Positions 2,294-63,878 of a stretch of 64,000 nucleotides of DNA are shown piece after piece (position 1 is the first letter of the stretch; each line of letters begins with the position of its first letter). The position numbers and the translations under genes are program-made. This stretch comes from Seison nebaliae (Eukaryota). Location: NCBI GenBank assembly GCA_023231475.1, contig JALJEE010001046.1:1-64000 (forward strand), in the 5' to 3' direction. The notes under the pieces are model-generated. The model worked only from the letters and a program-made list of their open reading frames with translations, was not told where the DNA came from and did not search any database.

Positions 2294-5002
2294 CTAATGT
2301 TGTTCCGATAACGGGTTGTGGAAGCGTGATGTTGCCGGCACATATTCTGCATTTTGATTAGTTTGCCAAGCAGTGTTTTTACCTTCTTTTGTTAGAACAG
2401 CATATTCTCGATTGTCTGCAATTATTGCAAATATTTTCCAAATGCCCAAACCCAATAAACCTAGCAAGACTATGGTTGCTATGACAACAACGATAATACC
2501 CCAAAGTGGTAAGGCAGTAGGACAATCTTTCTTTTTCTTTATGTTAATCAAAATATCATCCATAAAGTCACTGTCAATATTAGTGTAAGCGAAGAAGAAA
2601 TTACATCCATCTGATGGGTCTTTGAATTGACAAATCTGTCCATTCTTCTCATCGTTTTCATTCTCTAGTTTGTCAACAATTACGTAATTCAAATCTTTGC
2701 ATTTCTCTTCACATTTATTTTGATGCATCAAACTTCCCGTTTTGAATATTTTGCACTGAACGCATTCTTTATTTTGTTCACAAGCACCAGGACATGTCTA
2801 AATAATCAATTTTGAATAATAATTATAAAAGGAATAATTACGAACAATACAATGTTGACAGAATGGTCCGGAATATAAGTCGTCACAAACACAACTTCCA
2901 CATTGACAATTTCCCTTATTATTACAAATTTTCTGAAGAAAAAAAAATTAGTAATAAAAAAATATAAAATTAGAATCTTAACTCCAGTTGAATTATCTAG
3001 ACAAGTATCAGTTCGATTATAACAAGAACAATCATCATCAATGTAATCAGGTTGACATTCGCATTTCCTTCCACAGCCACAGACACCTCGTTTTATTCCA
3101 CCACAAATCTTCCCTTCAAATTGTGGACAACTGAAGTTGTCACATTCACAAAACGTTCCGTTGATGAATTCATTTGATTTCTAAAATTAATTTTTATTAT
3201 CGATTAAAATTATTGTGATTATTTAACTTTTCTTTCATCACATATACATTTTCCACATTGACATATCCCACGATCATTACATATGATTCCAGTTTGACTA
3301 GAATTAAAATTTAAAAAAATAATAATTTTTTTGTCAAATTAACAGAAAGAAGGAACTTGTGTCGACACAACTCCATCATTTCCTCATAAGATCGATGGTT
3401 TAATTCGCATTCACAATTGTCACCGGCAAATCCGTTTTCACAATCACAAATTCCACAATTTAATGTTCCACGTCCACTGCAAACGTTTTCTCCTAAAGTT
3501 TCTTTTAAATTCTAAAACATTTAAAAAATTCACAATAATAAATTAATAATAAGAATCGACAACTTCACATGACTGACAATCACATAAAGGCTCAATGTGA
3601 ATTGTTACGTCTTCAGATAATCCCATTGGTTTAATTTTCAATTTCAACGATTTACCTGAATTCGATTTGCAACTTTTTAATGTAATCGAAGTTTCTATTT
3701 GTAATTCATCGCCGATTTTCAAATTAACACATTTCCGACTATTCACTAATTCGCATCGTTTCTCATCAAATTTATAATTTATATCGATTGATGGTGATCT
3801 TCCTTCTTCAAACAATTCTAATCCAGAAGAAATTTTCTAAAGACAAACATAATTTTTTCATCTAAATAAATTCAAACTTTATAATTGTCAACAACTAAAT
3901 CGACGATGTTGGCGGAATCGTTATCCAATTTTCCATAAACGGTTCCATAAAGTAATTGACTGAGATTTGAATATAATTCCAAACGATCTTCAGTCACCGC
4001 AAAAATTAAATTTATATTTTTCTGTTTAATTTTTTGATTTATTTGTCCAATGGACGGATAATCATGTTCGAGTGAATGAGTATATTCATTATCTCTCAAA
4101 TGACAAAGACCATCATTTGGTTTGATAATTCCTGCCAATCTACCTTCACCAGCCATATGAAATTCGGCATCAGTCGATAAAATAATTAATCGTCGACTAT
4201 TCTCTCTCCAACCGATTTCTTTCTCACAAACAATAACTTGAAGTAATGCTTCTAATCCACCTTCAGGTGCATCCAAATTACCAGAAACAGGTGTTGCTTC
4301 AACACTGCGAGAAAAGAGTTGTTCGTCATCAGACAAATTCATACGATGTTTAAATAAATAAGGAGCAGCACATCCTTTGCATGGCGATTGTTTCCTGAGC
4401 GGATGAGTATCGATAAATGGCGAGATAGTTTTGTCAACAAACGATCCGAAACCTAAACGGAAATTTTTCGTAATTTTTTTTAATCGTCGCGCTAATTCTT
4501 CTCCTAATAATGACAGACGTTTCTTGTCGTCTAACATTGAATAACTCATATCCATCAAGAAATAAAGATCGACAGGATAATCTTTTGATTGACGGAAAGT
4601 TATATTAAATTTGGCTTCTTCATTTACTCGTAATTTCAGTTTGATGTTTGATGGAATGATTTGAACAGCGTCCTTCATTTTACCATTCTTCAATTCGATT
4701 GCATCTGACAAATCGTTTTTATTGTCGATTTTTATCGATTGTTTTGGATTAGTAATATCATCAATCGGACAATTATCATTCACCAATTCTTCATATAAAT
4801 TACATCGACTCTTTTTGAAATCTTTCGATAAAGTATGACACCAGGAACATGGTTGACTATTATCATTATTGTCAATATATTGAATGGATGATATACAACT
4901 ATCACACGCTTCTTCTTCATTGCACAAAGAATGGATTAATTGGAATTTTAGAAAAAATATTGCGAATATGAAATTGAGTAGAAAAAAGTGAATTCTTTTC
5001 AT
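2294..5002 (-). CDS. Integrin beta subunit (7 exons, 6 GTT-AG introns)
   Basis: Signal peptide, PSI cysteines, I-like domain with MIDAS DLYFLMDMSYSM, GFGSFVDK and SGNLDAPEGG, Cys-rich EGF repeats rebuilt across introns at ~2800-3560, TM helix and cytoplasmic tail. Confidence 0.95.
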
Positions 5003-5063
5003 TTTTTTTCTTCAAGTTTTGTATTTGGAACGAATGGGATGTGTACTTTTAATAAGAATTTAT

Positions 5064-5281
5064 TGATAAGTAAATTCCAGCACTTATCAGAAAAATTCAC
5101 TTATCAATTATTCTATTAAGCTTAACAGTTCAATTTTTCTTTTATTTATCTTTCTCTCTTTAATATGTTCTACAATTTTCTGGAGAATAGATTGAAACTC
5201 AATCATCTTCATTTGATAGTGTACTTATCAGTTTTTAAAAATCATACATATTCACACGAACCATAAAAGAGAACAGATAAG
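5064..5281. promoter_or_regulatory. Cluster of GATA-factor sites upstream of integrin beta
   Basis: TGATAAGT or its reverse complement at 5064, 5082, 5099 and 5223, plus AGATAAG at 5275. Confidence 0.45.
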
Positions 5282-5515: not shown

Positions 5516-8088
5516 TTATTCCCATTTCTTATAATTGATTTTTGGAATTGAATCACATGAAACCATTTCGTTACCATCATTTGTTGGTAATTCGAGAGCG
5601 TGCGGTTGAATCTTTTCTATTCCGTCAATTGTCATACAAAGTACATAAGCCAGAGAACTTTTCCTTATTTGCCGAAGCTGAGCTTTAGTGAATTGTTGAT
5701 CGTCACCTCCATTTTCATAATAATATCGATCACCAAATTTAGTTCGATAGAAATTTTCCGCTATGAGACATCCAAAAGTTGGACCAGTTGTTCCACCCTT
5801 TGAATGTTTCTCACTCATTGCACCAACAAATAAATCGATATCTTCAATATTTCTATAAAAAGAAATTGATGAATTAAAAATTTAAATAATTTGTAACTCA
5901 TATACTGATTGTAGTTTGACGATGACATCTGGTTCAATAATGTCCAACTCTTTCAAATCCTCCCATGTTTTTGTTGGACATTCAACTTCTTCTTTCTTCC
6001 CATACGTACCAGTTTTTATTTGATCAATATATTGATCGCATAAATGTTTATAATTTATATAACCATCTAAACCAGCGGCACGACCTCGTTGAATATCAAT
6101 TCCAGCCAAATCGTGTGCAAATTTAATTCCTAAAAGTTTTTGGAAAATTGAAATTTTTGGAATATTTTGAAAATATAAAAACTCACTTGAATTTTCATCA
6201 AAATCCGCAAATAATTGAGAATGCATTGATATCGGAAATATCTCATTTCCTTTACCCGCAGCATCATATAATAAACCGTAAAGAAATCCATTTAATCCAT
6301 AAGATTCACTTGAATGATGAATATATTGACGAGAAAAAATAGAAATATTTCTAACTTTTTCAGTTGTTTTGTTGTAAATAAAGTTTGCGACATTGGAACT
6401 GCCTCTTGTTTTTTCGTTCCGTTATTATATAAAATTGACATCGATTCTCGAATTTGTGTATGTCCAAAACGGAAAGCAGCAGCATTCATTTCTAGAGAGA
6501 TTCGTGGATCTATTGTATCATTATAATCCATAAAATATTTACCATTTTCCAATGATAATAAGTGGAAAGTTTCACTTAATTCATCGCCGACGGTTGTTCG
6601 GACATATTCATTATAAGAAATGTGTTGGAAGACACCTGAAGCAATTTTTCGACTTTCTTCAAATAATTCGTCATCTGTCCAATCGTCATGATATTTCCTC
6701 AACTTCTCGGAAATGATATTATGAAATCTGAAAAAGATGACATGTAAAATTGCCAATCCAGTATTTTCACCAGTTCTTTTATCGCCAGTGAGGAAGCAAT
6801 CTTCGTTATCCCGATTCATAATACAATCTCTACCTTTTCTGGGAAAAGTTTTACGATTATTTGTCTTATTTTTATTCCCTCGATTTCCGGTCAATTTACC
6901 AGCAAAATTTAATCTCAAAACATCCGCATCATTTTGGACTGATCCATAAATATGAGATAAATCAATAAATGACGTTGGATCATTAATGGCATTTCTATCA
7001 GGATATTCTAAAGAGAATAATATTGAAAAGTAAAAGAAAAGAAATTTTAAACTCATATCAGCACAACTATCATTAGTCAGTGAGATGGAATTAACATGAG
7101 ATATAGTCTGACAAGTTTTGGTTTCAAAATTTTCGAAAAATTCATCATTTTCTTCAATTGGGAAATTTTGACATAACGTCGAATTACCATTACATGGACA
7201 TCTTCCAGGCATCGAAGAGAAACCATCAAATGCTGAATCGGCTAATGTCATATCGTGAGATAAGAATTGACCGAACGACATATGTAAATGGTTAAGAAAA
7301 TCACTATCCGGTAACGCCGATGTTCCATGAACTTTAAGAGTAATTTCTCTTGGTGTTGGAAGAGTACGATCTTTTACCGTTTAAAAACCAACAAAAGTTT
7401 ATTTGACCTTTCAATTAGATAAATTAAACTTGTTAAATCGATCGGTGATTGTAACCGTTTCATTGGAGTAAATGACTTACCTTTCCACATATGAATTTTA
7501 TTATTACAAGAACCATCGATAGTTCGAAATTTACGAAATGGACAGCCCATCGACATACTTACATTATAATAATTTTCACAAGGTTCGCTACCGCTAAAAG
7601 GAGAAAGTAGTTTAATTTGTATTAATTGATAATCGAATGAGTCCAAATCGACAACTAACGGTGAAATGAACGTAAATATTCGAGGTTGCTATTTCATGAA
7701 TTATAAAAAAGTTAATAATTTTATCCTAAATAGTAAATAAAAACCAGATTAGACACATTCGAGGTACTTCTTGATGTCTGAATGGTGGTAGTATCAATGG
7801 TCGTTTTTGTTGTTGTTGAAGTGAATGTCGATGAAATTATTGAAGTAAGTACAGTAGTGAAATTACTTTCATCGGAATTATTCACGTTACTAATCGCCAA
7901 TGCTAAACCTACAATAATACCAGAAATGACGAGGAAACCGATAAGTAGCGACCCTCTAAGAAATACATAGAACTGAACAAATATTTCAAACATGTCTCTA
8001 ACATCATTATTGGTGTGAGTGCAACTTTTCGAATTTTAGACCTGTTAGACTGATCTTCATTCTTATGACTGATGAAAAACTTAAACAT
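5516..8088 (-). CDS. Animal heme peroxidase (peroxidase-cyclooxygenase superfamily) with N-terminal TM anchor and Ser/Thr stalk, ~9 exons
   Basis: Motifs FRTIDGSCNN, FGQFLSHD (distal Gln/His), TSFIDLSHIYG, GDKRTGE, AFRFGH (proximal His), DIQRGR, IDLFVGAMSE and GDRYYYE. Exons join in frame across short introns, with ATG at 8088. Confidence 0.9.
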
Positions 8089-8588: not shown

Positions 8589-10628
8589 TCATTTGAACTC
8601 ATTCAAAAATTCGATATGAAATTTTTTGAAAGTTGCCAAAGCTTCTTTGATCTGTTCTACAGGTGGTAAAATAGTTATACGGAAATGATATGTCCCCGGT
8701 TTCTGTAAAAATCCACTTCCAGGTACGACGCAGATTCCTGTTCGTTCTAATAATTCTTTACAATAATACGAGTCGGGAGTCATCTCCAACGATTTGGCCT
8801 TCTCAATTAATTTGGATGGTAATTCCAATTTGGGGAAACAATACATTGCACCACATACTGGATTACATGATATTCCTGGAATAGAATTGAATAATTCTGT
8901 TATCAATTCTCCTTTTAATTTCAATTCTGATAAGATTTTCTCTTTCTCTTCTAACCATTTATTATATGATGGTCCATCAGATGAGGGTGGTGCAATAGCA
9001 CAACTAACAGCCGCTTGACCAATAGACGACGGACATAATTTCGCTGTCAACATTTTGTACAACATCGCTTCGACTGCTGGATCGAAATTCATCACTTCCA
9101 TATAACCACCTCGAAGACCACATTCTCCGAAATATCCTTTAGATACCGAATGGAACGATACCAATTCCAAATCACTATATGGTTTGCCCATACCTAATAA
9201 AACTTTGCGGAAAGAATGAAAAGCTGCTTCTTTGGCGAAAATGTTATCCTGATAAACTTCATCAGCCAAAATAACTAAATTCTTCTCATAAGCAAATTTG
9301 ATAACTAATTTAATATTTTCTTCAGTCAACACTTGACCTGTGGGATTTCCAGGATTGATGATGACAATCGCTCTAGGTTCCACTTCCACGTCATCTCGTC
9401 GTCTTTTATAAGTTTCTTCTAATTCTTCTAATGTCAACGACCAGCCTTGTTCTTCATTCAAATAATATCCCATATCTGAAAGACCGAATTCCGTAATTGT
9501 TGCTGAATATAATGGATATTGTGGAATGGGAATTAAAATTCCTGATTTCTTCAAATTATTTTGTGTAATAAAAAGTTCTAGAATACTTCGAATTCCTTCA
9601 GATGCACCAGCAGTTATATAAATATTGTTGATATCACATTTCCGATCAGTTCCGTCTCGTTTATTTATATAATTCACAACATCTTCTCGAACTGATGTAA
9701 TACCTTTCGATTCTGTATATGAACCGACTGATTCGCCTTTACATGATCCCAAAATTCTTTTCGCTTTCTCTTTTATGTCACTGGGAACGAAATCCGTTTC
9801 CAATAAATCTTTATTCAATATCGACGACAACGTTTGACGAACATATGTGAGTGGCATTTGACCGAGTGCATGACAATCACCAATATTGCATCGTAAAACG
9901 GAATTGAACGATTTCTTTACTCCCTAGAAATTATAATAAATAGAATAATATAATTATTCTTATTAATTGATTTTAAATTAAAAATTTTTCATGTTTTAGA
10001 TACTTAAAATCCGTTCGTTTTCATCAAATAGAAATAACTTGTTTCAATTCATTCTCAATAACAGCGGCACGTTGCGGAATTGGACCGCGCACCGAATATT
10101 CGAGTTTAATGACTGATGGATTTAATCGTTCTAATGTTAAATTTTTTTTCATTCTAGCATTTTGAAAAATAATTATGAAATTTTTTTCTGATCACAAATA
10201 ATTTTAGTTATCAATTATTTTTCTCGAAAATTAAACGACCAATATTTGACAGCAATAAATTTGAAAAAAAAAACAATTCAATTCAGTTACATTTTTTAAT
10301 CGTGAAAATATTAAAGAATAATAAGAAGATATGTAAGTAAAATTAATATGCATGTGATTTTTTCCAGTTTCTATCTGAATGTATGATCAGAGAGAAAAGT
10401 GTGGAATAAAAATGATTGAAATGAAAAAGTTTAACTTACTCGTTCTAGCTCTAATTCTAATTCGATGGCACGGTTAGGTATCGGTCCACGAACAGCATAT
10501 TGGAGATCGATTACATTTCTATTCATATTGCAAATTTGTAAGTTCTTCTCATTCTTTCTCGCTGATGGAGACGAACAAGCGAGACGTTTAGAAGTTTGAT
10601 TGAGAAGATTTCGACTTACAATTTTCAT
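8589..10628 (-). CDS. GPT: Alanine aminotransferase with two alternative first coding exons (10440-10628 and 10039-10152) spliced to a common exon starting at 9923
   Basis: PLP class I motifs INPGNPTGQ, ADEVYQ, SVSKGYFGECGLRGGY and VPGSGF. Both first exons encode the Y[AS]VRGPIP motif and join in phase 0 to GVKKSFNSVLRCNIGDCH. Confidence 0.93.
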
Positions 10629-11244
10629 AACTAGAAAAATAATTCTCTATAAGAAAGAAAGTGAAAAGAAAATAAATTTTGTTATTCATTTGAATATATA
10701 CATATCATTTCTGACTCCTTATTATGGACTGGAGAATGTATATAAAAATATTTTGTTCATATATATAACGTGTAGAATGTACATTACACATGACCTAATT
10801 ATACATAGTAGCAATTATGAATTTAACATAAATTGAACCATAAAGTAGGAAGATTTTTTTTTAATACGTTTCATTTATTTAATGAATTAAACTGCTTAAT
10901 TATTGTGCTAATATGATAAATAAGCTTCCTCATATTACCATTATCTTACAATTTATTTATTTCATTGTTAAATTTATTTACTTGTTTTGTTTCTACGCTA
11001 TTTTATCGCATTTTATTAACGTTAAAAGAATTGTTCTCTCTTTTTAAGAATTGAAATAAGTTTCCATCATCTAGTTGTAGTTAGAGGTTAGGAGAAGAAT
11101 TGGCTATTTCAATTTTGCATGTTCTTTCGAGTAGTTTCAGTTTAATTATTTTGTAGTATATTCATATTTTCGCTATAAAACGCTTTACCCTATGGGGATT
11201 TGGAGTCTTAATAAAAAAAATTAACTATTGACAAAATAAATTTT

Positions 11245-12600: not shown

Positions 12601-13275
12601 TTATTTAAAGTGAACACTCACTTTCTCGTTAATGTCGATGTGATTAAAAAGTTTCTGAAATTCGATGAAATTTATCGTTTTCGCATATTCCACTTCCTTG
12701 TCTAATTCGCCTAATAAACGATCGACGATATTCTCTAATTGTTCCTCTGAAATATTCGTTCCGACCATCATATGGAGAATGTTGAATAATTCCGTTCGCG
12801 ATATCTTACCATCACGATCTTTATCATAAATCTAATTTATCGATAAAAAATTATCAAGATTAGGAAAAAGAAGAACTTTAAATAAAAATTTCAATTTATT
12901 ATTTTTACAATTCAAATCTTCTTCCATTTCATTCTCTCCATTATCATTCTCATCATCATTTTTTACCTTTTCCTTCGTAGAAACATTTCTGTTTTGTTTT
13001 AGAAAGACGGCCAATACGTCACAGAAATTTTTGAAATTAATTGAATCATCATCCGTTTCGTCAAAGAAACAATCAACTATCCGTTCACCTAATGGATTAA
13101 TTGCTAGATCAGGAATCCTTAAAAGGTCGTCTCTTGTAAGAAATCCGTTCGAATGTTTATCAAGACTAGTGAATCGAGAATAAAGTCGTTTAATTTGAGC
13201 TCCATTAAAACCAGTTTCTTTTTCAAGATTTACAATTTCTTCAGCTCGCAAAGTCAAGGAAGGATTGGAACCCAT
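12601..13275 (-). CDS. CHP1: Calcineurin B homologous protein (EF-hand), 2 exons
   Basis: N-myristoylation MGS, ETGF..QIKRLYSRFTSLDK and LAINPLGERIV. Exon 2 (IYDKDRDGKISRTEL...MMVG) follows a GTT-AG intron at ~12832-12876. Confidence 0.9.
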
Positions 13276-13874: not shown

Positions 13875-16800
13875 ATGAAAATGAAAGTTAAACGAATAAT
13901 TTCTGTTAAAACCAGTAAACTTTTCTTTGAATTAGGCATGTAATGCAACCATCCTATTAATGGATGTCACTGCATCGATGGGTGATGCGGTTGATTTAAA
14001 TGGAAATACTCATCTTCAACTTTGTTCTGATATTATTCAATTGATTATAAAGAAGAAATTGTTTGAGGAATCGAATGATTTATTCGCATTACTACTCATG
14101 GGAACAGATGATTCAGATAATCATTTATCCCAAAAATTTTCATCGGAAACAAATGCTTATAACCACATTAGTTTAGTGCGAACTCTTGCACCGATTTCAT
14201 GGACTTTCCTCAATTATATTACTACGGAATTGAAGACATACAATAACGAAGTTGATAGTTCACAATTTTTAAACTTAACATAGAAATTTAAAATTACTTT
14301 CTCAACTGTCTAGTGCTTAATGCCTTAATCGTCGGAGCGGATATAATGCGAGATGCTAAAGAGTTTTAACATCATTTTTCCTCTCAACTTCTCTAATTCT
14401 CCCTATAGAAATTACAATTTGTTACAAAGGAAGATTATCGTATTGTCAGCTTTCCAGTCTCCGAAATTCGAAATGCCAGAAGCAGTTTTGAAAGGAATAC
14501 AGAATGATAAAATATTAATAGACTTTATGTTTAGACTTTCAATAATTTCAAACCAATTTTCATTTAAATTCTTCTTCCAGAACACCTTACACTTTATCTA
14601 ACGATCCAATGCTGTCCCTAAAAAAAGAAGATTATGATGATGATGATGAAAATGATCATGATGGTTCTAAGAGACGAAAAAACGATTATGATAATCGTTA
14701 TAAACCGATGGATGGACTCAAGTATCCGAATGGTGAACTGCTAACTCGATTAGATGTGACTATCTCCTCAATCGCAAGATATGAAGGAGAACTATACTCT
14801 TATTCGTTTTCATTGTCTTTTTATCAAAAACTAATTTATATTTTGTTCTTTTAGTCAATCATTAGATATGTTGTCTACATTAACTCCAAGAATGACATCC
14901 CCAATGGGTCAGAAGTTTGTCTTAGAAATAAGTGATCAAATTACAATTCCTTTACAATTTTATTTAAAGTTATCTTTACATAAGTTGCTGAATGATAGAA
15001 TATGCATTATGTTCTTAGAGTTAAAGAGAATAAACCAGATGTTCTAAAAGGAAAGAAAGTGCTCACGAGAGATCCCAATGAAAAGGTAGTTGTTGAACGA
15101 TCTCGATTCACTAAAGATGATGAAGGAATGGAAGTGGAAGCAAGCGACCTAATTGACGGTTATATGTACGGAAAATCATTTATTCCAATATCGGAAGCAG
15201 ATGCTGTTCATTTGAAATTGGATAATGTAAAATCTTTAAAATTAGTCGTTTTCACAACATCAGATCGAGTTAGTTTCAACTTTTTAAAATTGAGAGTTTT
15301 CTCAATTTTATATCTACGACTACTCTGTAATGATATGGGGAAAAGTTGGATAATATTTTTAATAACTTTATTTCACTTCTAAGATTCGGACGGAATATAT
15401 TCAAAGTGCGGGAGTTTATCAAGTTATGCCACAACTAGGTGATGATAATGCAATGTTATCAGTAACGGCTTTATGTAAAGCGATGATCGAGTCGAATAAT
15501 GTTGCAATTGTACGAAAAGTATTTAGTAAACGAAGTGATCCAGAAATTGGTTATTTGACACCAATTCACGAAAATCAGCAGTATTATTTCATTTATCATA
15601 AATTGCCTTACGCGGAAGATATGAGAAAGTATGATTTCCCATTATTGGCGATTGAAGATAAGGAGATTGAACATTTTTTCCACGACGATCGTAAACTGAA
15701 AGATGAAGAGATTGGGCATATGAATAATTTTATTGATCATTCAATGTTGTTAAACGATATGGATAAATGGAAGAATCTCTTCCAGAAAAAAGAAGACGAA
15801 GATTTAACTATCATGAAATCGAACGATGATGATATAGAAGAAATTGTTGAATCAGATGATAAAATATTGAAATCGATTCAAGAAAACTTCGCTCGAAATT
15901 GTGGAGATGATATATTTAAGAAGGTTTTGAAAAGAATCCAATTAAATTTATTCAATTACAAATCAGACAATCTTTTGGAAATCGATGATTTTGAAGATGA
16001 AATTCTCGCACCGGAAGATACCTACAATCCCCAATGTCAACGTATGATGAATGAAATATGTGAACGAGTTCTAAATAAAGAACATGAATTACCATTAGAG
16101 AAGTTTGATGATATCGCCAAAAATGGAATATATCGAAGCAATTTAACCGATAAATATTATCCTTTAATTTTATGTCAAGAGTTGTTAGGAAGAGAATTAC
16201 AAAGAACATTTGAATTACCAAAAATCTTAATCGATGACATAACAACAACAAATGACACGACCGATTTTAATGAAACTACTGAACAGTCAACTGATTCGAA
16301 TGATGATGTTGAAGAACGATTTCAAAATACGGTTTTCTTCCATTTTCTCTAGAATCTTAATAACTAATCAATCTATATTTTTCATTTAAAAATAGATGAA
16401 TACTTTAAATCCAATTATCGATTTTGAGAATATGATGGTTTCTGGTGAAACTTTTAAGAATGGTTAAATTCAACACTTTACAATGCACTTAATTTTCTCC
16501 AAAATTTTCAGCATTCTTTCAGTTAGCTAAAACTGTCAAAGGTTTCCTCACAAATGTTTTCAATCGCGATTTATTCAATAAATCATTAGAATGTCTCCAA
16601 TTCTTAAGGAAACAATGTATCGAAGTTTGATTTTGGGATAATTATTAACCGGTCAATTGTACATCCAATATTTTTTCAAATAAAAAACGGTGTTTTTGTC
16701 CCTAAAAACACGATCTCCATATCATATATTTCTGAATATTTCGGTGATTTTATCACTCGTTATAGAAAATTTCTATAATTTCTTCAACCGTTTTTTGGAG

Positions 16801-17198
16801 TGATGAAAACAGCATTTTTTATCTGAAAAATATTGAGTGACGAAATGACATGCATTTGGATAATTAACATTTTCTTCAGAAAAAATCCCCAAATTTGTTT
16901 AATGAATTTCTGCGAAGTTTAAAGTCAAATGTTTTCGATCCTCAAACTTATGGAACTGACGATTTTGAAAATTTATTAGTAGAAAGTTCAAATTTATTGT
17001 TCTTTGATTTTGTCCAATTTTCTTTTTATTTTAGATGACGTTCAACTGATTAATGATACCGAAGTGGAGAATGACGGTGTGAAGAAAGAAGAAGCGATCA
17101 TATTTATCAAAAAGGAAATTATTGAAGAAAAGAAAGAAGAAATAAAGAATGATGATGATGGTGATTTAGATGCGGACGATCTATTAGATTTCATGTAA
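13875..17198 (+). CDS. XRCC5: Ku80 (NHEJ DNA end-binding subunit), 12 exons
   Basis: vWA start ILLMDVTASM, LMGTDDSDNHL, GYMYGKSFIP, LPYAEDMRKYDFP, NPQCQR and the C-terminal DNA-PKcs-binding motif DDLLDFM. Eleven GTT-AG introns restore the frame. Confidence 0.9.
16652..16849. mobile_element. Degenerate foldback/MITE-like insert in Ku80 intron 16625-16879
   Basis: The left arm CAATATTTTTTCAAATAAAAAACGGTGTTTT (~16666) is an imperfect inverted repeat of AAAACAGCATTTTTTATCTGAAAAATATTG (~16806-16835). The intron is about five times the local norm. Confidence 0.55.
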
Positions 17199-18636: not shown

Positions 18637-20839
18637 ATGTCTGCAATCGGTATTGATTTGGGAACAACCTATTCATGTGTCGGTGTATTCCAACATGGTA
18701 AATGCGAGATCATTGCTAATGATCAAGGTAATCGAACTACTCCATCATATGTTGCATTTACTGATTCGGAACGATTGATTGGTGATGCCGCAAAGAACCA
18801 AGTGGCAATGAATCCAACAAACACCATTTTTGGTTAGTTATCTAACTAATTCATATATTTTTTTCAAATTCTTTAATGATGAGAACTCTTATGAGACTTC
18901 GCGGTTTCCAATGAGATTCATTTCAAAGATTTTATATTTCCTTGGAAGACTGATAAATATTTTTTAAATAATTTTTAAAAATTTTTGAATATTCTTCAAA
19001 TTGACTAATATTTTTTCTTTTATCTTAGATGCCAAGCGTCTTATTGGTCGTAAGTTTGATGATGAAACGGTTCGACGAGATATGAAACATTGGCCATTCA
19101 AAGTGGTGAATGATTCGACTAAACCGAAAATCCAAGTGGAATTCAAGAATGAAACGAAAACCTTCTATCCGGAAGAAGTTTCCGCTATGGTCCTCACTAA
19201 AATGAAGGAAACGGCTGAATCATATTTGGGAAAGAATGTTTCCAAATCTGTCATTACTGTTCCCGCCTATTTCAATGATGCTCAACGACAAGCAACAAAG
19301 GATGCTGGTACGATTTCTGGAATGAATGTTCTCCGAATCATCAATGAACCAACAGCAGCTGCTATCGCTTATGGTTTGGACAAGAAGATCGGTGGTGAAA
19401 GAAACGTCTTAATTTTCGATTTGGGTGGTGGTACATTCGATGTATCAATTTTGACGATTGAAGAAGGTATCTTCGAAGTGAAATCAACAGCTGGTGATAC
19501 TCATTTGGGAGGAGAAGATTTCGATAGTCGATTGGTCGACTTTTTTGTTGAAGAATTCAAACGAAAGAACAAAAAGGATATGAGAGGAAATAAACGAGCA
19601 GTTAGACGATTGAGAACTGCATGTGAAAGAGCGAAACGAACATTATCATCATCTGCCAATGCCAATATTGAAATCGATTCATTATATGATGGTATCGATT
19701 TCTATTCACCAATTACACGTGCACGTTTCGAAGAATTATGTTCAGATTTGTTTCGAAGTACTTTGGATCCGGTCGAAAAGGCATTAAAAGATTCCAAATT
19801 GGACAAGAGTTCTATTCAAGATATTGTATTGGTTGGTGGTTCTACTCGAATCCCAAAAGTTCAAAAGTTACTTCAAGATTTCTTCAATGGAAAAGAACTG
19901 AATAAGAGCATCAATCCTGATGAAGCTGTTGCATATGGTGCTGCCGTACAAGCTGCAATTCTTTGTGGTGACAAATCGGAACAAGTCCAAGATTTGTTGT
20001 TATTAGATGTTACTCCATTGTCATTGGGAATCGAAACTGCTGGTGGTGTAATGACTTCATTGATTAAACGAAATACGACAATTCCCACAAAAACTAGTCA
20101 AGTATTCACAACATATGCTGACAATCAGCCAGGTGTGTTGATCCAAGTTTATGAAGGAGAACGTGCAATGACGAAAGATAATAATCTTTTGGGTAAATTC
20201 GAATTATCTGGAATTCCTCCAGCTCCACGTGGTGTACCTCAAATCGAAGTAACATTCGATATTGATGCTAATGGTATTTTGAATGTTCATGCTGTTGACA
20301 AGAGTACTGGAAAAGAGAATAAGATTACCATCACTAATGATAAAGGACGATTATCGAAAGAAGAAATTGAACGAATGGTTAATGATGCTGATAAGTACAA
20401 AGCAGATGATGAAGCTCAACGACAAAAAGTCGATGCTCGAAATCAATTGGAAAGTTACGTGTTCAACATGAAATCGACAGTTGATGATGAGAAAGTTAAA
20501 GATAAAATCTCTGATGATGACAAGAAGAAGATTAAGGAGAAATGTGATGAAACAATCAAATGGCTCGATTCGAATACTTTAGCAGAAAAGGAAGAATTCG
20601 AACATAAACGAAAAGAATTAGAAGAAATTTGCAATCCAATCATTTCGAAGATGTATGCAGCTGCTGGCGGTGCAGGTGCTGGAGGTATGCCAGGTGGTAT
20701 GCCTGGAGGTATGCCCGGTGGAATGCCAGGTGGTATGCCCGGAGGTATGCCAGGAGGTATGCCAGGAGGATTCCCAGGAGCTGGAGCTGGTGGAGCAGGA
20801 GGATCCAACAAAGGACCAACCATCGAAGAAGTCGATTAA
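18637..20839 (+). CDS. HSPA8: Cytosolic Hsp70 (hsc70 type), 2 exons, intron 18833-19028
   Basis: [40 protein letters not shown] repeats and terminal GPTIEEVD. Intron-containing. Confidence 0.96.
18872..18957 (+). ncRNA. SNORD14: U14 box C/D snoRNA in the hsc70 intron
   Basis: Box C ATGATGA at 18876-18882, box D CTGA at 18950-18953 and terminal stem TTTA/TAAA. Domain A TTCGCGGTTTCC (18898-18909) and domain B TTCCTTGGAAGA, directly before box D, match the two 18S-antisense elements of U14 (vertebrate TTCGCAGTTTCC and TTCCTTGGATGT). Confidence 0.88.
20681..20776 (+). repeat. Coding tetrapeptide repeat, 7x GGMP plus GGFP, in the hsc70 C-terminus
   Basis: Direct translation. Synonymous variation between the 12-bp units. 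Confidence 0.95.
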
Positions 20840-31048: not shown

Positions 31049-31994
31049 TTAAATTATTTTCTTTTTACCTTCATAAAATTCGGCTGTATTAAAAATTTGT
31101 TTCGGTATAAGAATCTTCTTTGGGATTTCTTTTGACTTCCATTGACTCATATATTTTTGTTTTTCCGCTAATATTACTCGTGCAGGTATTATATCGTTTG
31201 CTAATTTCTGAAAATTTTCAATTTCAAATATTTAAGTTAGATAAATAGCAGTGAAAAAAAGAAAAACTTTAAAATTTGAAGGAATTCTTATTAGAGAAGA
31301 ATGACGTGTTATAAGTAAATATTGCCAACCAACCATTCCGTAATGAGCCAACATCACTCGATAATACTGGAGAAACGTTTCGACCAAAGGGAAAGCAATA
31401 GGTAAATCTTCACCCAAATAAACGTTTCCTCTTAAAATAATCCAAACTCCATTGAGATAATCCAATCTCTTCTCGTTCATCAAGATCAAAACAATTCGAC
31501 CAACTTTCTGATATTGTGAGTCGAGATCCAGAGCAATAATATGATGAATGTCACTTGAAAATTTTAGAGAAGTATTTTGAAAGAAAATAAAAATAACTGT
31601 TTTTGGAAGTTTTGGAGTTTTTGATCATAAAATTTCACATTCGTCAAACGACGATGAATGTTCGATAATTTCTGTAAAGGATTTATATAAATCGAACCAG
31701 TCTCATCAAACGATTTTTCGTCTTTATTATTATTCCAATTCCAAGTATAATGAATTCCATTTCTCCATAAATAAAATTCTTTCAAATCTTTAGGTAAACG
31801 AAATTTTTCATTCTTTTCAAATTTAAAATTGACATAAGTGGGAAATTTAGAACTTGTTCAAATTCTTCAATGTCGTTCAACGTGAGATCTCTGAATGTGT
31901 CATTCTTTTTAATATCAATAATATTAGGTTGCCTCTGAATCTCAGATAAGAATTGATCAAAAAATGGTTCTGAAATAAATTTTACTTCTTCCAT
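31049..31994 (-). CDS. TPGS2: Tubulin polyglutamylase complex subunit 2, 4 exons
   Basis: Spliced product FEQNEKFRLPKDLKEFYLWRNGIHYTW...GSIYINPLQKL...ETFLQYYRVMLAHYGMVGWQY parallels TPGS2 motifs (FYLMTNGFHMTW, GSMAINSISKL, TFTAYYRLLITHLGLPQWQY). Confidence 0.8.
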
Positions 31995-46985: not shown

Positions 46986-47238
46986 TTTTTTAATTAAAAA
47001 AATTTATTAAAATGAAAATAAATGATTAATCCAATTCCCATTCAGTCATCAGTTTAATTATATCATTTTTATTATATTTTATACTTGATAAATGTTATAC
47101 TCATTCCTGTTACTGATTATAATTAAATTAATTACATTCATTTCCATCAATTCCTTCCAAATTCCTTTTACCGTAAATGATAAGCTCTTTGACATAACAT
47201 TGCATTATATTTTCATTTTGGATTGTTCACTTACCAAA

Positions 47239-50200
47239 ATGTCTTTAATTTTCCAAGTTTTTTTCCATTACGTTCAAAAATATTCATTAAATATTTTAGC
47301 GGATTCTTCGACAATCATCTCTTTCGAAAATCTTTATTAGGAGGAATGCCGTTTGTATTTTGTTCTTAAATTAAATTATATTTTTTTCTCAAGACAATAA
47401 ATTACGAATTGGACCGAATTAGGAATATCGGTATTTCAGCACATATCGATAGTGGGAAGACTACTCTAACTGAAAGAATTTTATATTATAGTGGAAGAAT
47501 TAATGAAATGCACGAAGTTTGCACAAAATTTAAAAATTAACTTAATCATCTTCTAAGGTGAAAGGGAAAGATGCCGTTGGAGCGACGATGGATTCAATGG
47601 ATTTGGAACGACAACGTGGAATCACTATTCAAAGTGCTGCAACTTATATCGATTGGAAAGAGCATAACATCAACATTATCGATACTCCAGGTTTTCATTC
47701 AAAAATTTGCTCAAAATTTTTATTTTATATTTCTCCTAAATATAATTTTAAAAAAAACTTTTAGGTCACGTTGATTTTACAATTGAAGTAGAGCGGGCGT
47801 TGCGTGTATTGGATGGTGCAGTTCTTGTGTTATGTGCTGTTGGTGGTGTTCAATCGCAAACATTGACTGTTAATAGACAAATGGAAAGATATAACGTTCC
47901 ATGTATAGCGTTCATCAATAAGTTGGATCGTTTAGGATCGAATCCACAAAAAGTTATTGGTCAAATGAGAAATAAATTGAAACATGAAGCGGCATTCGTT
48001 CAATTTCCAATGGGATTAGAATCGAAATTAAATGGAGTTGTTGACATTATTGATGAACGTGCCATTTATTACGAAGGAGCAACTGGGTTGGAAGTTTCTT
48101 TAAATTATTTCATTTCCAAACATTCTTTTTTAGTGCAACAACTAGAAAAGATAAAGTTCCCGAACAATATGAAAATGATTTGAAGAAATATCGTCAAGAA
48201 TTAATCGGTTTTCCTTCATATTCCCTCCGATTATTTATCTCATAATTTGTCAAAGAACATCTCTCCAATGTTGATGATGAAATAGCAGAAGTGTTTCTTA
48301 GTGAACAAATTCCAACAAAAGCACAAATTAAAGTTTTCTTCCCATAAATTATTTGTTTGATGTGAATGATTATTGGAAATTAGAAAGCTGTTCGACGTCA
48401 ATGTTTAAAGAGAAAATTTACTCCAGTTTTCGTTGGTTCCGCTCTCAAGAATACGGGTGTTCAGAGTTTGTTGGATGGTGTGGTGGAATATTTGCCAAAT
48501 CCTTCCCAAGTCAATAACTTTGCAATAGAAACAACAAAGTTATTTTATTATATTATTTTATGATTATTTAACTTCAAATCATTTTGAAAAGAAATGAAGA
48601 TGAAGAGGAAAAGAAAATTAAATTAAATAACTTTCGGAATTCAAATGATGAATTTGTTGGATTGGCATTCAAACTAGAAGTTATTTTTCTTTTTAAAACT
48701 ATTTCATTTAATAATTGATTAATAATAAGGCAGGTCGTTTTGGACAATTGACATACTTGCGCATTTATCAAGGAACTGTCGACAAAGGCCAATATATTTA
48801 TAATACAAGAACGGGAAGAAGAATCAAAATTCCACGCATGGTACGAATGCATTCGAATCAAATGGAAGTTTATCTATTTTTCTCTCCGTTTCTTATCAAT
48901 TATTTTCAGGATACAAATTCTGTATCATCTGGTGACATTGTCGCATTTTTTGGTGTAGATTGTGCGAGTGGAGACACATTTGTTACAAATAAGAACCTTA
49001 AATTAAGTATGGTTAATGTTATGGTGTAGAGTTTGTTTTCAATTGAAATTTGAAATATTTTAGGAATCGATACATATTCCTGATGCCGTTCTCTCAATGT
49101 CTATTCGACCTGTTGATAAAAATAATTTAGAAAATTTTTCGAAAGGATTGGCAAGGTTAAATTTAATTGTTGAATTATTTCTTTTAATATTAATTTTGTC
49201 CGTTTTCATTTCTTATTATTTCTCTGTAATATTTTCACTATAATTTAATTTTCATTATTAATTTTATTAATATTTTCAGATTCACAAAAGAAGATCCCAC
49301 ATTTCGAATAGCTTACGATAATGAATCGAAAGAAACTTTGGCATCGGGCATGGGTGAATTACATTTGGAGATTTATGCTCAACGTCTCGAAAGGGAATAT
49401 GGAGCGAAATGTGTATTGGGCAAACCGAAAGTAGCTTTTCGAGAAACTTTAATCGAACCTTTCCAGTTATTAATCGAACCTTTACTAATAGTCGTATTAA
49501 TTGTGTTGAATGGAAATTATTGAAATATTTGAAGGTTCGATTATCAGCATAAAAGACAATCAGGAGGTCAAGGTCAATTTGGTCGAGTGATTGGAATTAT
49601 TGATGTTAGACATATCTGCTTTTAATTGGTGAATTTATTGTTGATAATTTCTAGCCACTTGGTTCAGATAAATATACTTTATGTGAATTCCGAAGTGAGA
49701 CGATTGGAACAAATATTCCAACGCAATATATTCCTGGTATTCGTCGTGGTTTCAATGACAGTTTAATTGAAGGTCCATTAAGTGGAGCGATCGTATCTGG
49801 AATACGGATGCGATTACAAGATGGTGTAAGTCATGCTGTTGATTCAAGTGATTACTCTTTCTATCTAGCTAGTAAGGGCGCAATGAAACAAGCGTTCGAT
49901 GAAGGACAATGGCAAATACTTGAACCGATTATGTTAGTTGAAGTAAATGCTCCCAGCGAATTCAAAGGTGCCGTTCTTGGACAATTGAATAAAAGAAGTG
50001 GAATCATTCAATCGACAGACGGTAGCATCGAATGGTCGACAGTATTCGCTGAAGTACCATTGAACAAAATGTTTGGTTATGCAACTGAGTTGCGTTCAGC
50101 CACTCAAGGTAAAGGAGAATTTACTATGGAATTTCATCGATACGCTCCCGCCCAAATAGATACGCAAAACCAAATTATTGACGAATATATTAATTCGAAA

Positions 50201-50239
50201 CTCAAACCAGTATCAGTTCATTCGCGTAAGAAACGATGA
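47239..50239 (+). CDS. GFM1: Mitochondrial elongation factor G1, 15 exons
   Basis: Presequence-like start, [65 protein letters not shown] and [15 protein letters not shown]. Fourteen GTT-AG introns restore the frame. Confidence 0.95.
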
Positions 50240-57552: not shown

Positions 57553-60500
57553 ATGACGTTGAATGATCATCGATCTAATTTGGAAGAGAGTGATGAAGAT
57601 GAGGACAATCATATCAACCTATGTGTTGTCACGACGACATGGAAGAAAATGTTCAAGTTTCCATCTGATCGTCTAATTTGGACAATAAAGAAAGATGTCA
57701 TCGAATCCTGTCCGCCAAATGTTTCCGATCCATATAATATGGGTCTCTATCTCCCACCATCAAATGGACGTGCGGGGAAGTTTTTGGACGAAGCGAGACT
57801 ACTGAATAATTATCCATTACAATCAAATGAAAGTCCATTTGTCATACTCGAATTCAAATATAAAAGAAGAATATATAAAATTTTAAACATCAACGAAACG
57901 AAAATAAAGAGTCTTCACACGGAAAAGAACTTGTGTAAATTTCTTCACAATATCAAAAGTCAAAATGTGAATAAAGTATTAAAATTATTGAATAAAGGAC
58001 TCGATCCTAATTTTCATTCAGTTGACACTAAAGATACGCCTCTAACACTCGCCATTCATCAATGGTCAGAATCGAATAATCAAATTGAAATTCATTCACA
58101 AAATACGAACGAAATTCATAAGATCAACAATAGTTCCACATCGGATTATTCGTCGAATATCAGTCAACTTTCAAGTAATTTTAGCAGTTTCTCCAGCCTA
58201 CCACCAAAAGGACAAAATGAAAAGAAATTTAGTCGAGTCAATTCAGCATTAAATACGACACTTCGTCGAAATAATACGAATTATACGCAACGTGTTAATA
58301 ATAGAGTGGAAGCATTCAAACAAATCGTATTGATGTTAGTTGAACATGGTGCTCATTTAGATTATCGAACAATGACTTCATTAACACCATTGCATGTGGC
58401 TGTCCAACGGAATAATTTGGCTGCTGTTAAAATACTTTTATCGTTAGGTGCATCACCCAATGTATATGATACGAATGATTTGACACCACTCTGGTATTCA
58501 ATGTCATCAGTTGTTTGTTTACCAATCATTCGTCTTCTGCTGCATGATCACGCCATCGTGAATGATTTGAGAGATCCTAGTGGAAATTCTATTGTGCATG
58601 AGGCGGTTATAGCCAATTCGGCTGAGAAACTTGAACAATTAATATTTTATGGGGCTATTCTAGATCAACAGAATCAAATTGGTAATACTCCTTTACATGT
58701 GGCCGTATTACATCGACATGTTTCCTACTTCTTATCCACATCAGTTTATTTGATTAATATTTTGTTCGTGTAGGAAGCATGTGTGCGAATGTTATTGTTT
58801 CGGGGTGCTGATTGCACAATAACGAATGATATGAATCTAACACCCAAACAAATTGCGGAAAAGGAAAAACTAACATCTTTCGTGAAAATGTTCAAGAATT
58901 TCAAGAAGAAAAATGCAGGTTAAATTCATGATTATGACTACCTCCTAGTTAAATTCCGAGAATTATCACTCCTTTGTCGCTTGTGACGAGTGGAAGTATT
59001 AAGGAACTATTCGCGTGAAACTGTTAGTGATACAAACAGTGAACGACATAAATCATATTTAAGTGAAGGAAGAAATCGAAGAATTTTAGAGTGGTGTAGT
59101 AGTTTCAGGAAAGGCAGAGGAAATTTCAGATTTATCTTTCTAATCGTTTCTTTTATTTATACATAAAAATTTGAAATTTCTAAATGATTCCTAAGCAAAA
59201 AAAGAGAGTAAAAGGTTTCTTGTTTACTTAAATGTAAAAAAAAATTGGGGAGACCAACATGAAAAAGCAATGAGACACCAAATAATTTTTTCCTTTTTTA
59301 AAGAAAACTCCATTTTTACTTTTTTAGAAGATAATGAGATGAAATGGAAATCTGAGATGAATTAGATACAATTGAACATAGATCAGATTCATTGACATTT
59401 CCTCAATCCCCATTAAAGCGGATCGATGATTCCTTTTTTATTTATTTATCGTCATTCTCTTTTGGTAAACATTTTTACTAGTTTTTTTTTTCGATGTCTT
59501 TTTTGTCCATTCGATTTCGACAACATCTATAAATAGATTATATTCCCTAGATTAATTTGTAGAGGAAATATCTAGTTAGATAATAATAAGATATAGTATG
59601 TATCATGAAAATTTTGAAAATGTTTAAAGTAAAAATTTCAGAATTGAATAATTTGAAAGACAGTTTTTGGAAGTAATAAAATTTTATCGTTATGAAAATG
59701 TCATTGGAGGATCGTCAAATACGTTTTTAAACAATAATATTAGCGACGAAAGATGATATGTGTTCCGAAGAAAAACGAATTATATTTATGGTTTTTTACG
59801 AGGGAAATATAATTGAAATTTTCACAAGACGAAAAACTTCCGGAATTTCTCATGATTCTCATCTTATCGATGTTAATGACTATTATTATGTTGGTGAGTG
59901 ACAGAGAAGGTTAAAAATTTATTGTTTTTTTTTCGTGGCATTCGATCATGAATGTAGAAATGTTCCGTCTTCGCGTCTTCCCCATAACTTATTTGTCATG
60001 TAACGAGAGGATCAGATGTACATTGGAAAATGTGACGAGGTGATGTTCGATTGATCGAACGATCAATAAATTATGTGATTTCCATTTGAACTACGCAAGA
60101 GAAGGTGAAGAAGAAGGAATAAATCAATTTTTTTGTTGATGTGATAGAAAAGGAAAGAATAGGAAAGAACTGAATTGTGTCTATCGACGAGAATAATTTC
60201 ATGAAAAACATATTTTAGAGAATTATCTCACAAATCGTTAATTGTAATGTATTACATAGAACCGTTCTGTGGTTTACCGGTACTCAACAGCAAAAGAAGA
60301 AGTATATATTTCTCATCAACTTTTCTCAACGACCGAAGTCTCTCCGTTCAAAATAAACAATCGATTTCAATGAATGAAGAAAAATTGGTTTTCGATTCGA
60401 AATATCATCGAAAGAAAATTTTGAGGAATTCCGAACGAGAACGAACTTATTCATCATTAAGTCATTCGTCAGCTAATGCTTATGGTGGTCAATCAACAAA

Positions 60501-62896
60501 TGATTATTCGGAAAACAAAAGAAAATGTAAGAAATTAGTTCGAACTGTTCAATTGGAGAAAAGTGATAACGGTTATGGTTTTGTGTTAAGAGGACCGCGT
60601 ACACTTAACGGAGTTAATATGGAAACTAATCGACCAAGTGCGCAATTTTTAGAACATGTTACGACGAATTCAGTAGCTGATTTGAATAATTTGTATGCGG
60701 GTGATTATGTCCTCAGTATTAATGGTGTTGATGTGAGAGAGGCTACTCATGATACTTGTGTGAAATTGATTCAAAATGGGTCGAATGTTCTCTCGATGAC
60801 CGTTATGTCAACGATGGATAATGAATCGATGACATACGACACAATCCCGAATCATTATAAGACTTATGGATTGACATCAGTCAATATTCCCAACATCAAA
60901 AAAGACGGTTCGTATTGACATTGAATCCTAATTGATTATCGTAGAGATGGATTTACTTTCTTCTTTTTTTGTTGGAAGAAATCTACTACGTATATTCTCA
61001 TTATATCTAAATTCTTCTTTTCTTTCTTCATATCCATTCCATTTTTCTTAATCGCATTAAACGTTGAGGATACAAACGAAGACGCTTTTTTTCATTGGCT
61101 TCTCTCTTTTACTATTTTTTTTAGGTAAATCTTCCAAATCTAATATATACAACACGGATGATATGAACGCCCTCGGTTAGTTCTATTTAAAAACAAAAAT
61201 TTTTCTTATACTTTTTAATAATAATATATATTTTGTTCAGCTAAACTTGATGCGACAATTGCCGAATTTGAATCGACTGTCGAATCATCAAACGAGAATT
61301 CATTATTAAGAAAAAATGCTCAATGTACATCATTATCACCTGGTTCTTCCACTTCTAGTAGTGGACATAGTAGTGGAAGTATGTCAAACAACCAAACATG
61401 TAGCAGTAGTAGTACAAGTGGAAGTAGTCAAGATAGTTCTGCTTTCCACGAACAAACTACTTTAGGAAAACAACAAAAGCAATTAATTTCATGTCAAAAA
61501 CTACAGCAACAACAACAACAACAACAACATCAACACTGTAATAACGATAAGAATAAAATGTTGAATAATGATGTTCAATTAATATCGTCGCAACCTCCAC
61601 CACCACCACTTAGAAAAAATTCTCTTCAACGACGGAAAACTAAACCGGAGAATTTCCGTTATATTCGCAAACAATCGATGGAATCATCTCATTCTATAAC
61701 ATTATCTAATAACGATAAAGTCGATAGTCGAAAACAGTCAGTTGGTGAGGAAAAGGAACCGGAATGGATGAAACACAAAGCAAATTTACGTCCTTTAGGC
61801 TCCGTCGTTTATTCTCGTTCACATCATACTTTCGATCGTTCTAGTCATCGATCATCAATTGATACGACTTCAGATCATTCAGAAAAAGAAAATCCTTCGA
61901 AAGCATCTAATAATGTCTCGTCGTTTGTGGGCGACAAACCTAAGAAAAGTGCACCCAAAATACCACCGGAAGTATCAACAGTTCAACCACTTTCTTTTCC
62001 GCCAAAACCGCCTGAAATTACTGAGGATTTCGTTAATAGTTTAACCCCGAAAAATGTATGGAGAACAGAATTGCGATTAGCTGAGAGGAAATCTGATCGA
62101 TTAAATGGATTAGATACATTGTCGTCAACTGATCTGTCATGTGAATTGAAAACGGCATTGAAAGAAAGGCGATCAAGAATTGGGGAAGGTATAAATATCA
62201 TGAAAGGATATAATGAAATCGAAAAAACAAATCAACGGAAAGATCTAAATTGCATTTCAGATGAACTTCGTAAGAAGATTGAGAAGCGAAAACATCTCAT
62301 CGATTTAGCACTTGATGGAATGAATAATTGTCCGAAAGAAGTGAAACATGAAGCATTCTGTTCTGTAAGTGAACAACATCTCACAAGTGAAAGTGCAAGT
62401 TCATTATCAATAGTGGATGATAATCTCACATATGATAATCCATCAAACAATAACAATAACAATAATAATTCGAATGATATTCAAAATAAGGAATATGGAA
62501 ATCAATCAACGGTTCAAGCAATCAAATCGAATGGAACAGTTTTCGATCCACGAATGGATGGTAATTTCCGAAATTTAATCGCATCCAAAGCAGCTGAAAA
62601 ACAAGCGAAATATCAATTGGAAAGTAATGGAAATTTGAACGATAATTCAACTGATCAAATCTTCCTGACTCGAATGTCAACTAGAACTACGACTTTTTTT
62701 GGTGATCAATCCACTTCAGAAAATGTATCACCGAAATTTCTGAATCGAGCGATTCCTAATAAAATGTGTCGTTAGAACATTTTTTTAAAATTATTTTTTC
62801 TTAATTCCATTTTTAGCATCTATCAATGAAGAAGGATTCACATCTCATGCTACTCATTTATTGGACAGAATAAAGAAGAATACAACAAATGACTAG
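57553..62896 (+). CDS. SHANK: Shank/ProSAP-like scaffold (SPN, ankyrin repeats, PDZ, proline-rich region), 6 exons
   Basis: YNMGLYLPPSNGRAGKFLDEARLL..YP, LEFKYKRRIY, KGLDPNFH, GAHLDYR, LFRGAD, and PDZ GYGFVLRG...QFLEHV. GTT introns at ~58719, 58919, 60908, 61176 and 62771. Confidence 0.92.
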
Positions 62897-63142
62897 AAAA
62901 TGGAATGATATTTATTTCGTCTATTTATTAATAATTTATTTATAAATTTACATTCAAATTAAATAATCGTTTCTTTCTTGTACAACAAAGCAAAATGGTT
63001 TCGTAGGAAATATTTAGACAGATTCCATTATTTTTCAATAACGGAATTTAACATCGGTATCGAAGTTTCTACATATTGTTCTTAAATCTTCCCATATGCT
63101 TCTTCAATTTCTATATAATGGATGACATAAACATTTTTATTT

Positions 63143-63878
63143 CTATAATTCAGTTCGTTCTTCCTCTTCCAATTTGTGTAATGCCTGCATAATCTTCTCT
63201 TGTAATTTATCTGATTCTGTTTCTTCGTCATTCTCTTTTTCATCTAATGGAATGGTTTGAGTTCTTCCATCAGTGTTCAGCCAATTCGAATACTCTTTCA
63301 CTTGTTTAGCAAGAGAACGAAATCTTGCTATTATTCCTAATCTGAGAGAGATTTGAAGAATATTTAGATTTAAAATGAAACCGTTCAGGTGTTTCTGAAT
63401 GATCTTTCAACCATCTTTTATAATCATCCCAATCAGCCACTTTTCCTTTCTCATATTCTTGATAATCGTGAACATGAACACCGGCATGACCCCCATGCAT
63501 TTGATTTTCCAAGTCATTTAAATTTGGACCAATATCATTCACAAGTTCCAATGAATCATTTGACTTCCTATAATTGTCAGACGAATGAATATGATTATTC
63601 TTCTGATTATTATGAAGTACATTCTCCAAAATTTCATCGGCTGATTCATTATTAATTTTAGTCTTTTTCAGATGTTTTCGATTACCTTTAATCAATCCAA
63701 CATGCATCAGCCTTTCCATCGATTCGATTGATGGTTCTGTTAAATCATTTCTTTTATTCGATTTTGATACTTGTTCAATTTCAGTGGAATTATTAAATTT
63801 TGACGCGTTAACGATAATTGATGAAAAAAAAGAGAAGAGAAAAAAATTGAAAAAGATGAAATAAAGTTTCATCCTCAT
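63143..63878 (-). CDS. Uncharacterised signal-peptide protein ending in RTEL, 2 exons
   Basis: Hydrophobic N-terminus MRMKLYFIFFNFFLFSFFSSIIVNA. A GTT-AG intron at ~63342-63381 extends the frame to ...HKLEEEERTEL-stop. Confidence 0.7.

Follow-up and report, generated by a model that had tools for sequence, protein, structure and literature searches.

Do the introns of Seison nebaliae, an epizoic member of Syndermata (PMC8351084), follow a 5' splice-site (donor) code of their own? The question is raised by a 64,000-nucleotide (nt) stretch of its genome with a GC content of about 30% (contig JALJEE010001046.1, positions 1 to 64,000; hereafter the window), in which a preliminary description had counted about 63 GTT starts among about 66 introns in 14 genes. 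All Seison intron counts given here come from this one window and refer to predicted junctions. Our rebuilt table of 65 introns in 15 genes holds 62 GTT donors, one GTG, one GTA and one GTC, in good agreement with that count. The GTT pattern is hence confirmed as a property of the predicted junctions, and comparison with relatives supports a lineage-specific shift in donor recognition.

Nearly all predicted introns in the window start with GTT

Three proteins named by NCBI for Seison nebaliae (GFM1, Ku80 and integrin beta) match exons of the window at 99-100% and were placed on it by exact translation, without a splice motif. This motif-free mapping left exactly one GT-AG register per junction in the three models. 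It returned GTT at 14/14 GFM1 introns and 11/11 Ku80 introns, as had been described. The mapped NCBI integrin model gave 7/7 GTT, including a seventh intron at 2460-2416 on the reverse strand. This candidate (2416-2460; 45 nt, in frame, within the transmembrane helix) was rejected, being coding by homology (retention +43.9 bits), and the six integrin introns originally claimed remain. Predicted models of the Seison genome may hold further false GTT introns.

All frame-compatible GT/GC-AG options up to 45 nt away were also ranked on non-Seison profiles (119 GFM1 homologues, 110 integrins and 86 peroxidase homologues), with no prior on the third intron base (+3). This homologue-only scoring returned the same donors in GFM1, integrin and a haem peroxidase gene. 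The GTT junction was the sole best option in 13 of the 14 GFM1 introns; in the remaining one, which falls in the targeting peptide, a GC option scored equally. In integrin, it ranked first in five of six cases, the other lying 0.9 bit behind a GTC located 3 nt downstream. The modelled peroxidase junction came first in six of seven introns, and the same GTT donor was retained in the seventh; in the first intron of this gene, GTT leads a GTG option by only 0.2 bit. A +3-blind spliced alignment guided by a Rotaria integrin likewise yielded six integrin introns, all GTT, and no seventh.

For introns outside the three NCBI models, GT-AG was imposed in the search. The remaining genes were resolved by reading frame, Pfam pieces and a +3-blind parser, with about six introns placed by eye. 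The parser recovers the same 11 introns in Ku80, the gene on which it was trained; it put GFM1 intron 13 in the wrong place and displaced the second integrin intron. At low penalty it called too many in-frame introns and was hence given a support role only. Of the introns in the table, 31 thus follow NCBI models, 32 rest on reading frame, the parser or homology, and two are ambiguous N-terminal introns; three small open reading frames (ORFs) near 23600, 28900 and 29500 lie outside the table. All six donors that had been singled out by coordinate (47257, 47351, 47517, 58919, 18833 and 33888) start with GTT. The same holds in the rebuilt model for the five introns of a presumably Shank-like gene, including the 1,341-nt intron at 58919; its last donor is ambiguous, with a rival GTC 3 nt upstream.

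Five introns fit a non-GTT donor about equally well: integrin 3563, peroxidase 7744, SLCO 45362, Shank 62771 and GFM1 47351 (a GC option). Scoring all five against GTT gives a worst case of 57/65 (88%). As background, T makes up 49% of intron bodies and follows 43% (75/173) of the non-donor GT dinucleotides inside introns. Unused GT sites at 38-62 nt from the acceptors of 46 short introns comprise 10 GTT, 8 GTA, 6 GTC and 6 GTG, indicating that alternatives exist and are left unchosen in the models. Exonic decoys are uninformative in this respect, GTA and GTT both being depleted.

These data bear on one rival explanation, an artefact of gene prediction, AT-rich drift or a pattern local to the contig. 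The junctions are predicted, they come from one 64-kb window, and the false GTT intron in the NCBI integrin model indicates that such models lean to GTT. However, homologue-only scoring arrives at the same donors, the same aligner gives GTA in equally AT-rich relatives (see below), and the genes in agreement are 15 unrelated ones on both strands. The GTT excess has a chance probability of 6e-16 (62/65), or 9e-11 in the worst case. We consider this explanation highly unlikely.

Donor anatomy and the three exceptions

Seison introns are short, with a median length of 51 nt and 50/65 at or below 60 nt; among those longer than 70 nt, 11/12 start with GTT. The donors favor A at -2 (60%) and at -1 (58%, followed by G at 26%), and T reaches 95% at +3 (1.66 bits). 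Farther into the intron, A (38%) and T (45%) share +4, G occupies +5 in 25% (16/65), and +6 is unbiased (T, 43%). Positions +4 to +6 had been described as lacking an AGT consensus. No AGT is indeed found, but +5G is still enriched, at 13/62 in GTT donors versus 5.9% G in intron bodies (p = 6e-5). The acceptors are TAG (38), AAG (16) and CAG (11). Branch-point motif enrichment is absent in Seison introns (33 seen versus 31.1 in shuffled sequence). With T at +3 in 62/65, the donors do not match the U12-type (minor) consensus RTATCCTT (PMC3488318).

Three donors depart from GTT (Table 1), and all three carry +5G, compared with 13 of the 62 GTT donors (Fisher p = 0.013). One lies in SLCO, whose three other introns start with GTT. 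Another belongs to a gene with two first exons at 10027-10646 on the reverse strand, which we take to be alanine aminotransferase. These first exons are similar to each other; the N-terminal extension of the distal one resembles a mitochondrial targeting peptide, and the proximal one has a GTT donor at 10038. In addition, a perfect AAG/GTAAGT inside a peroxidase exon falls outside the four best options of the homologue ranking, so that the GTT donor leads it by 15.7 bits or more. This preference for GTT may be due to the shorter intron just as well as to the sequence.

Bdelloid-like relatives mostly have GTA at shared intron positions

Metagenome contigs were scanned with bdelloid integrins, yielding 25 loci, nine of them at 88-95% identity to Adineta or Rotaria proteins. 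The bdelloid-like set consists of five distinct loci (L007, L008, L016, L017 and L023), with L009-L012 left out as near-copies of L007, and its count excludes two joins of 431 and 360 nt, which link fused genes in model P0136. Its 64 intron copies represent 23 positions and are therefore non-independent. A comparison of +3 usage with related taxa, already suggested in the preliminary description, separates the two groups clearly: the bdelloid-like copies comprise 58 GTA, 3 GTG and 3 GTT donors (+3A, 91%; 1.46 bits), versus GTT in 62/65 Seison introns. When a single bdelloid-like locus is set against Seison, GTT occurs in 1/22 introns (Fisher p = 6e-16; 1e-12 in the worst case). Nine other animal loci have GTT in 2/24.

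The bdelloid-like introns otherwise look like those of Seison, with a median of 54 nt versus 51 nt, AT-rich bodies, mostly A at -1 and a weak +5G. The frequency of +5G shows no significant difference between Seison (16/65) and L007 (8/21; p = 0.27), suggesting that the weak +5 is common to Seison and the bdelloid-like loci. At +4, A occurs in 25/65 Seison donors versus 15/21 in L007 (p = 0.012) and 73% of the bdelloid-like donors overall. AAG acceptors are frequent on both sides (14/64 in the bdelloid-like set), and a relaxed -3 position seems shared. Near the 3' end, the branch-like motifs YTRAY/TAAY are depleted in the bdelloid-like introns relative to shuffled sequence (12 seen, 27.7 expected), unlike in Seison.

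Five of the six Seison integrin introns match bdelloid-like introns in position and phase, and the bdelloid-like copies at these positions are 14/15 GTA and one GTG. The bodies of 52 Seison introns are no more alike than shuffled sequences (best score, 35; shuffles, 31-43). Shared positions together with dissimilar bodies point to ancestral introns whose third base was changed in place, mostly from GTA to GTT, which argues against AT drift and against an introner. Such a mobile family of GTT-starting introns, replacing the old ones, would explain the uniform start and the narrow length range. Given the shared integrin positions and the lack of likeness among bodies, we regard this origin as extremely unlikely.

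The changed donor recognition that had been proposed from the window is thereby supported as a lineage-specific shift, since relatives have GTA and shared introns appear to have switched. It does not amount to a new intron class. The GTT introns of Seison have GT-AG ends, canonical GTRAGT donors persist in the models, and the same +3U shift occurs in Entamoeba.

A predicted change in U1 and U6

Donor position +3 faces nucleotide 6 of U1 small nuclear RNA (snRNA) and later G44 of U6, and +4 faces U6 A43, which is methylated by METTL16. The window itself contains no snRNA detectable with Rfam, which gave zero matches at the gathering score and four weak microRNA-like matches far below threshold.

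We propose that a U1 change plus an unmethylated U6 lies behind the GTT donors, a reading to which we give a probability of roughly 45%. The ordinary major spliceosome would have been retuned at intron +3. The predicted event is a one-base change at U1 nucleotide 6, leaving a pairing segment ACUAAC or ACAAAC in place of ACUUAC, and this U-to-A change would allow pairing with +3U. It would probably be joined by an unmethylated U6, in which loss of N6-methyladenosine (m6A) at A43 would remove the preference for +4A and +3U could wobble-pair with G44. Short, U-rich introns are presumably defined across the intron, so that few donor bases would be needed. The relatives probably already depend on +3 (91% A) with a weak +5. 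Seison would have retained their layout (-2A, -1A, GT, strong +3, weak +5) except for a different base at +3 and the loss of +4A, and donors without +3U would need +5G as compensation for the lost pair.

The strong +3A of the relatives fits a standard U1, and an equally strong +3 with another base in Seison is as expected from one complementary U1 change. Of nine donor positions, Seison donors match on average 4.20 with canonical U1 and 5.14 with the one-base variant, which was fitted, making the comparison partly circular; the bdelloid-like donors match 5.84 and 4.98, respectively.

Evidence on U6 comes from a BUSCO table that scores METTL16 as 'Missing' only in Seison among 25 syndermatan genomes (PMC12256650 supplement). 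The same table lists SNRNP27, PRP8, PRP6, PRP31 and Sm D1/D2/G as 'Complete' in Seison. Further 'Missing' entries in Seison are SNRNP40, LSm2 and ZMAT5, the last of these in both acanthocephalans as well. According to PMC11347140 and PMC11732430, METTL16 loss moves splicing off +4A in worms, humans and yeasts, and such a loss would account for the lost +4A in Seison. Here +4A drops from 73% to 38%, while +4T (45%) does not rise above the intron background (49%). The 'Missing' score for METTL16 should be taken as a lead rather than as proof.

The METTL16 score also fits an account in which U1 is standard and +3U is set at the U6 hand-over. This could happen through a METTL16-less U6 (U+2:A45, U+3-G44 wobble, U+4:A43), through changed U1C, LUC7, PRP8 or SNRNP27, or through a change of U6 G44. 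Purines at +3 pair weakly with U6 G44, snrp-27 mutants alter +3 use (PMC11732430), and two Caenorhabditis elegans mett-10 mutant examples move to GUUG sites (PMC11347140). Moreover, most atypical-donor lineages keep a standard U1, among them Thecamonas, Mamiellales and 69 Saccharomycotina (bioRxiv 10.1101/2022.06.08.495308). However, METTL16-less yeasts go to +4U, described as GUAUGU, and keep +3A (bioRxiv 10.1101/2022.06.08.495308; PMC11732430). In Seison, a +4U at background level and a +5G of just 25% make U6 pairing look weak. We view this account as quite possible.

More radically, U1 could be lost or bypassed, with U6/U5 and proteins selecting the donor directly. The 4.2/9 mean match to canonical U1 would be in line with this, and Cyanidioschyzon merolae is a reported precedent, cited in bioRxiv 10.1101/2022.06.08.495308. 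Seison, however, is intron-rich in the window and its donors are degenerate. Core factors are scored 'Complete' in the BUSCO table, in which a term search did not turn up U1-specific proteins (PMC12256650). A bypass of U1 is decidedly unlikely.

Several points weigh against the proposed combination of a U1 change and an unmethylated U6. Two fully canonical donors remain, with GTRAGT in only 2/65 introns. Exonic GTRAG sites show no depletion (30 versus 26.0 expected), a count that would need a control species to be informative. The variant U1 reaches only about 5/9 matches, so pairing is not the whole code, and tens of thousands of introns would need to shift alongside U1. The standard U1 of most atypical-donor lineages is a further objection, which counts for less because their atypical donors concern +4. 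BUSCO loss in Seison amounts to 356/954 (37%; PMC12256650), and 'Missing' may reflect divergence. Finally, the roles of U1 and U6 in Seison are inferred from donors, not from Seison snRNA. The most far-reaching version is rather unlikely in our estimate. In it, Seison would be the first animal with an altered U1 recognition sequence, its ancestral introns having moved from GTA to GTT by the tens of thousands, and would also represent the first natural animal loss of METTL16 and U6 m6A, leaving a donor code of three letters plus intron length.

Other features of the window

Table 1. Genes, introns and donor sites of the window, with the evidence behind each
Feature	Position	Strand	Introns and donors	Basis and remarks
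GFM1 (mitochondrial EF-G)	47239..50239	+	14 introns, 41-124 nt, all GTT	100% match to NCBI-named protein
Ku80	13875..17198	+	11 introns, all GTT	Exact mapping of NCBI-named protein
Integrin beta	2294..5002	-	6 introns, all GTT	5 positions common to bdelloid-like loci
Haem peroxidase	5516..7993	-	7 introns: 6 GTT (first two ambiguous), 1 GTGAGT	Pfam PF03098
Exception 1, 57-nt peroxidase intron	6130..6186	-	GTGAGT	Homology ranks it first of 5, none starting GTT; retention scores -10.8 bits
Perfect AAG/GTAAGT inside peroxidase exon	7475..7483	-		51 nt upstream of GTT donor, in frame with same acceptor
Exception 2, distal alternative first exon, presumed alanine aminotransferase	9924..10439	-	GTAAGT	Putative exon; open frame, by eye from first-exon likeness
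Exception 3, 41-nt SLCO intron	45730..45770	+	CAG/GTCTGA	Parser; required for open frame
hsc70 intron	18833..19028	+	GTT	Parser
BiP intron	33888..33944	+	GTT	Parser
Intron of EF-hand gene, presumably CHP1-like	12832..12876	-	GTT	Parser, Pfam
Methyltransferase, presumably TRMT44-like	21322..23593	+	6 introns, all GTT	Parser, frame, Pfam PF07757
Three introns of one gene, presumably TPGS2-like	31208..31853	-	All GTT	Parser; third by eye; no Pfam match
PWI-domain gene, presumably SRRM1-like	40387..42359	+	3 introns, all GTT	Parser, Pfam PF01480
Presumably Shank-like gene	57553..62896	+	5 introns, all GTT in model	Parser, frame
Last gene, 40-nt intron	63342..63381	-	GTT	By eye from frame

The tail of the presumed SRRM1-like splicing coactivator seems poor in arginine/serine repeats by eye, which is relevant if proteins drive intron definition. 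Four sequencing runs on GFM1 look like DNA, with zero spliced joints. These runs contain a second sequence type across 47150-50300, at low depth, about 15% different and with a longer intron 2. It keeps GTTT at intron 48868, with at least 11 substitutions and at least 4 indels elsewhere in the intron, a hint from one intron.

Positions 1-260 are a tandem repeat with a unit of about 14 nt. Inverted repeats at 28595-28770 and 35860-35960 coincide with weak microRNA-like Rfam matches far below threshold and are possibly miniature transposon remnants. On the reverse strand, a pair of ORF fragments that overlap each other and are richer in GC lies at 471-1080; they have no Pfam match and are possibly a decayed retroelement ORF.

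Comparison with known systems

A literature search, with most subscription journals outside its reach, turned up neither an account of Seison donors nor one of a GTT-dominated animal. In the consulted portion of the Seison genome paper (PMC8351084), introns appear only in relation to gene compactness, and its two supplements hold no splicing-term match. No donor pattern is given in the consulted portion of the lamin paper (PMC10125929), and splicing terms find no match in the main text of PMC12256650. PMC10639083 includes Seison among its species, and the database of that study may contain a donor logo for it.

The +3U shift itself is already known from Entamoeba; new are its occurrence in an intron-rich animal, the degenerate remainder of the donor and the existence of close relatives in the old state. 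Uniform atypical donors were formerly thought to be tied to massive intron loss in microbes. A +3 swap in old introns would make Seison a test of how a signal and its reader change jointly over thousands of sites, and because close relatives keep GTA, the path of change is traceable. If the METTL16 loss is true, Seison would also be a natural animal test of the link between METTL16 and splice sites that has been described in yeasts and in mutants. A practical consequence is that software for gene prediction or splice-site scoring will misjudge the Seison genome if it was trained on other animals.

The nearest parallel is Entamoeba, with GUUUGU(U) donors, a U1 carrying ACAAAC and a standard U6 (Roy and Bowser, bioRxiv 10.1101/2022.06.08.495308). 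It shares with Seison GT-AG introns and a near-universal U at +3. Entamoeba, an intron-poor protist, has a fixed branch point and a strict donor of six to seven bases (88-90% GUUUGU). The intron-rich animal Seison, with up to 14 introns in a gene, has GTT alone fixed, an unbiased +4 and +5G in 25%, and no branch motif is enriched. Mastigamoeba balamuthi is likewise intron-rich, and a U1 change (ACGUAC) fitting its atypical donor has been proposed (bioRxiv 10.1101/2022.06.08.495308); it differs in being a protist and in its change at +4, not +3.

Saccharomycotina that lost METTL16 and SNRNP27K resemble Seison in the scored absence of METTL16 and in the vanished +4A preference (PMC10581693, PMC11732430). 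They switched from +4A to +4U and, unlike Seison, kept +3A, are intron-poor and tend to have lost SNRNP27K as well, while SNRNP27 is 'Complete' in Seison (PMC12256650). Also close are the short U2-type introns of the bdelloid-like loci, which share the length class, AT-richness, the predominance of A at -1, the weak +5G, AAG acceptors and intron positions. They differ from those of Seison in having +3A (58/64) and +4A (73%).

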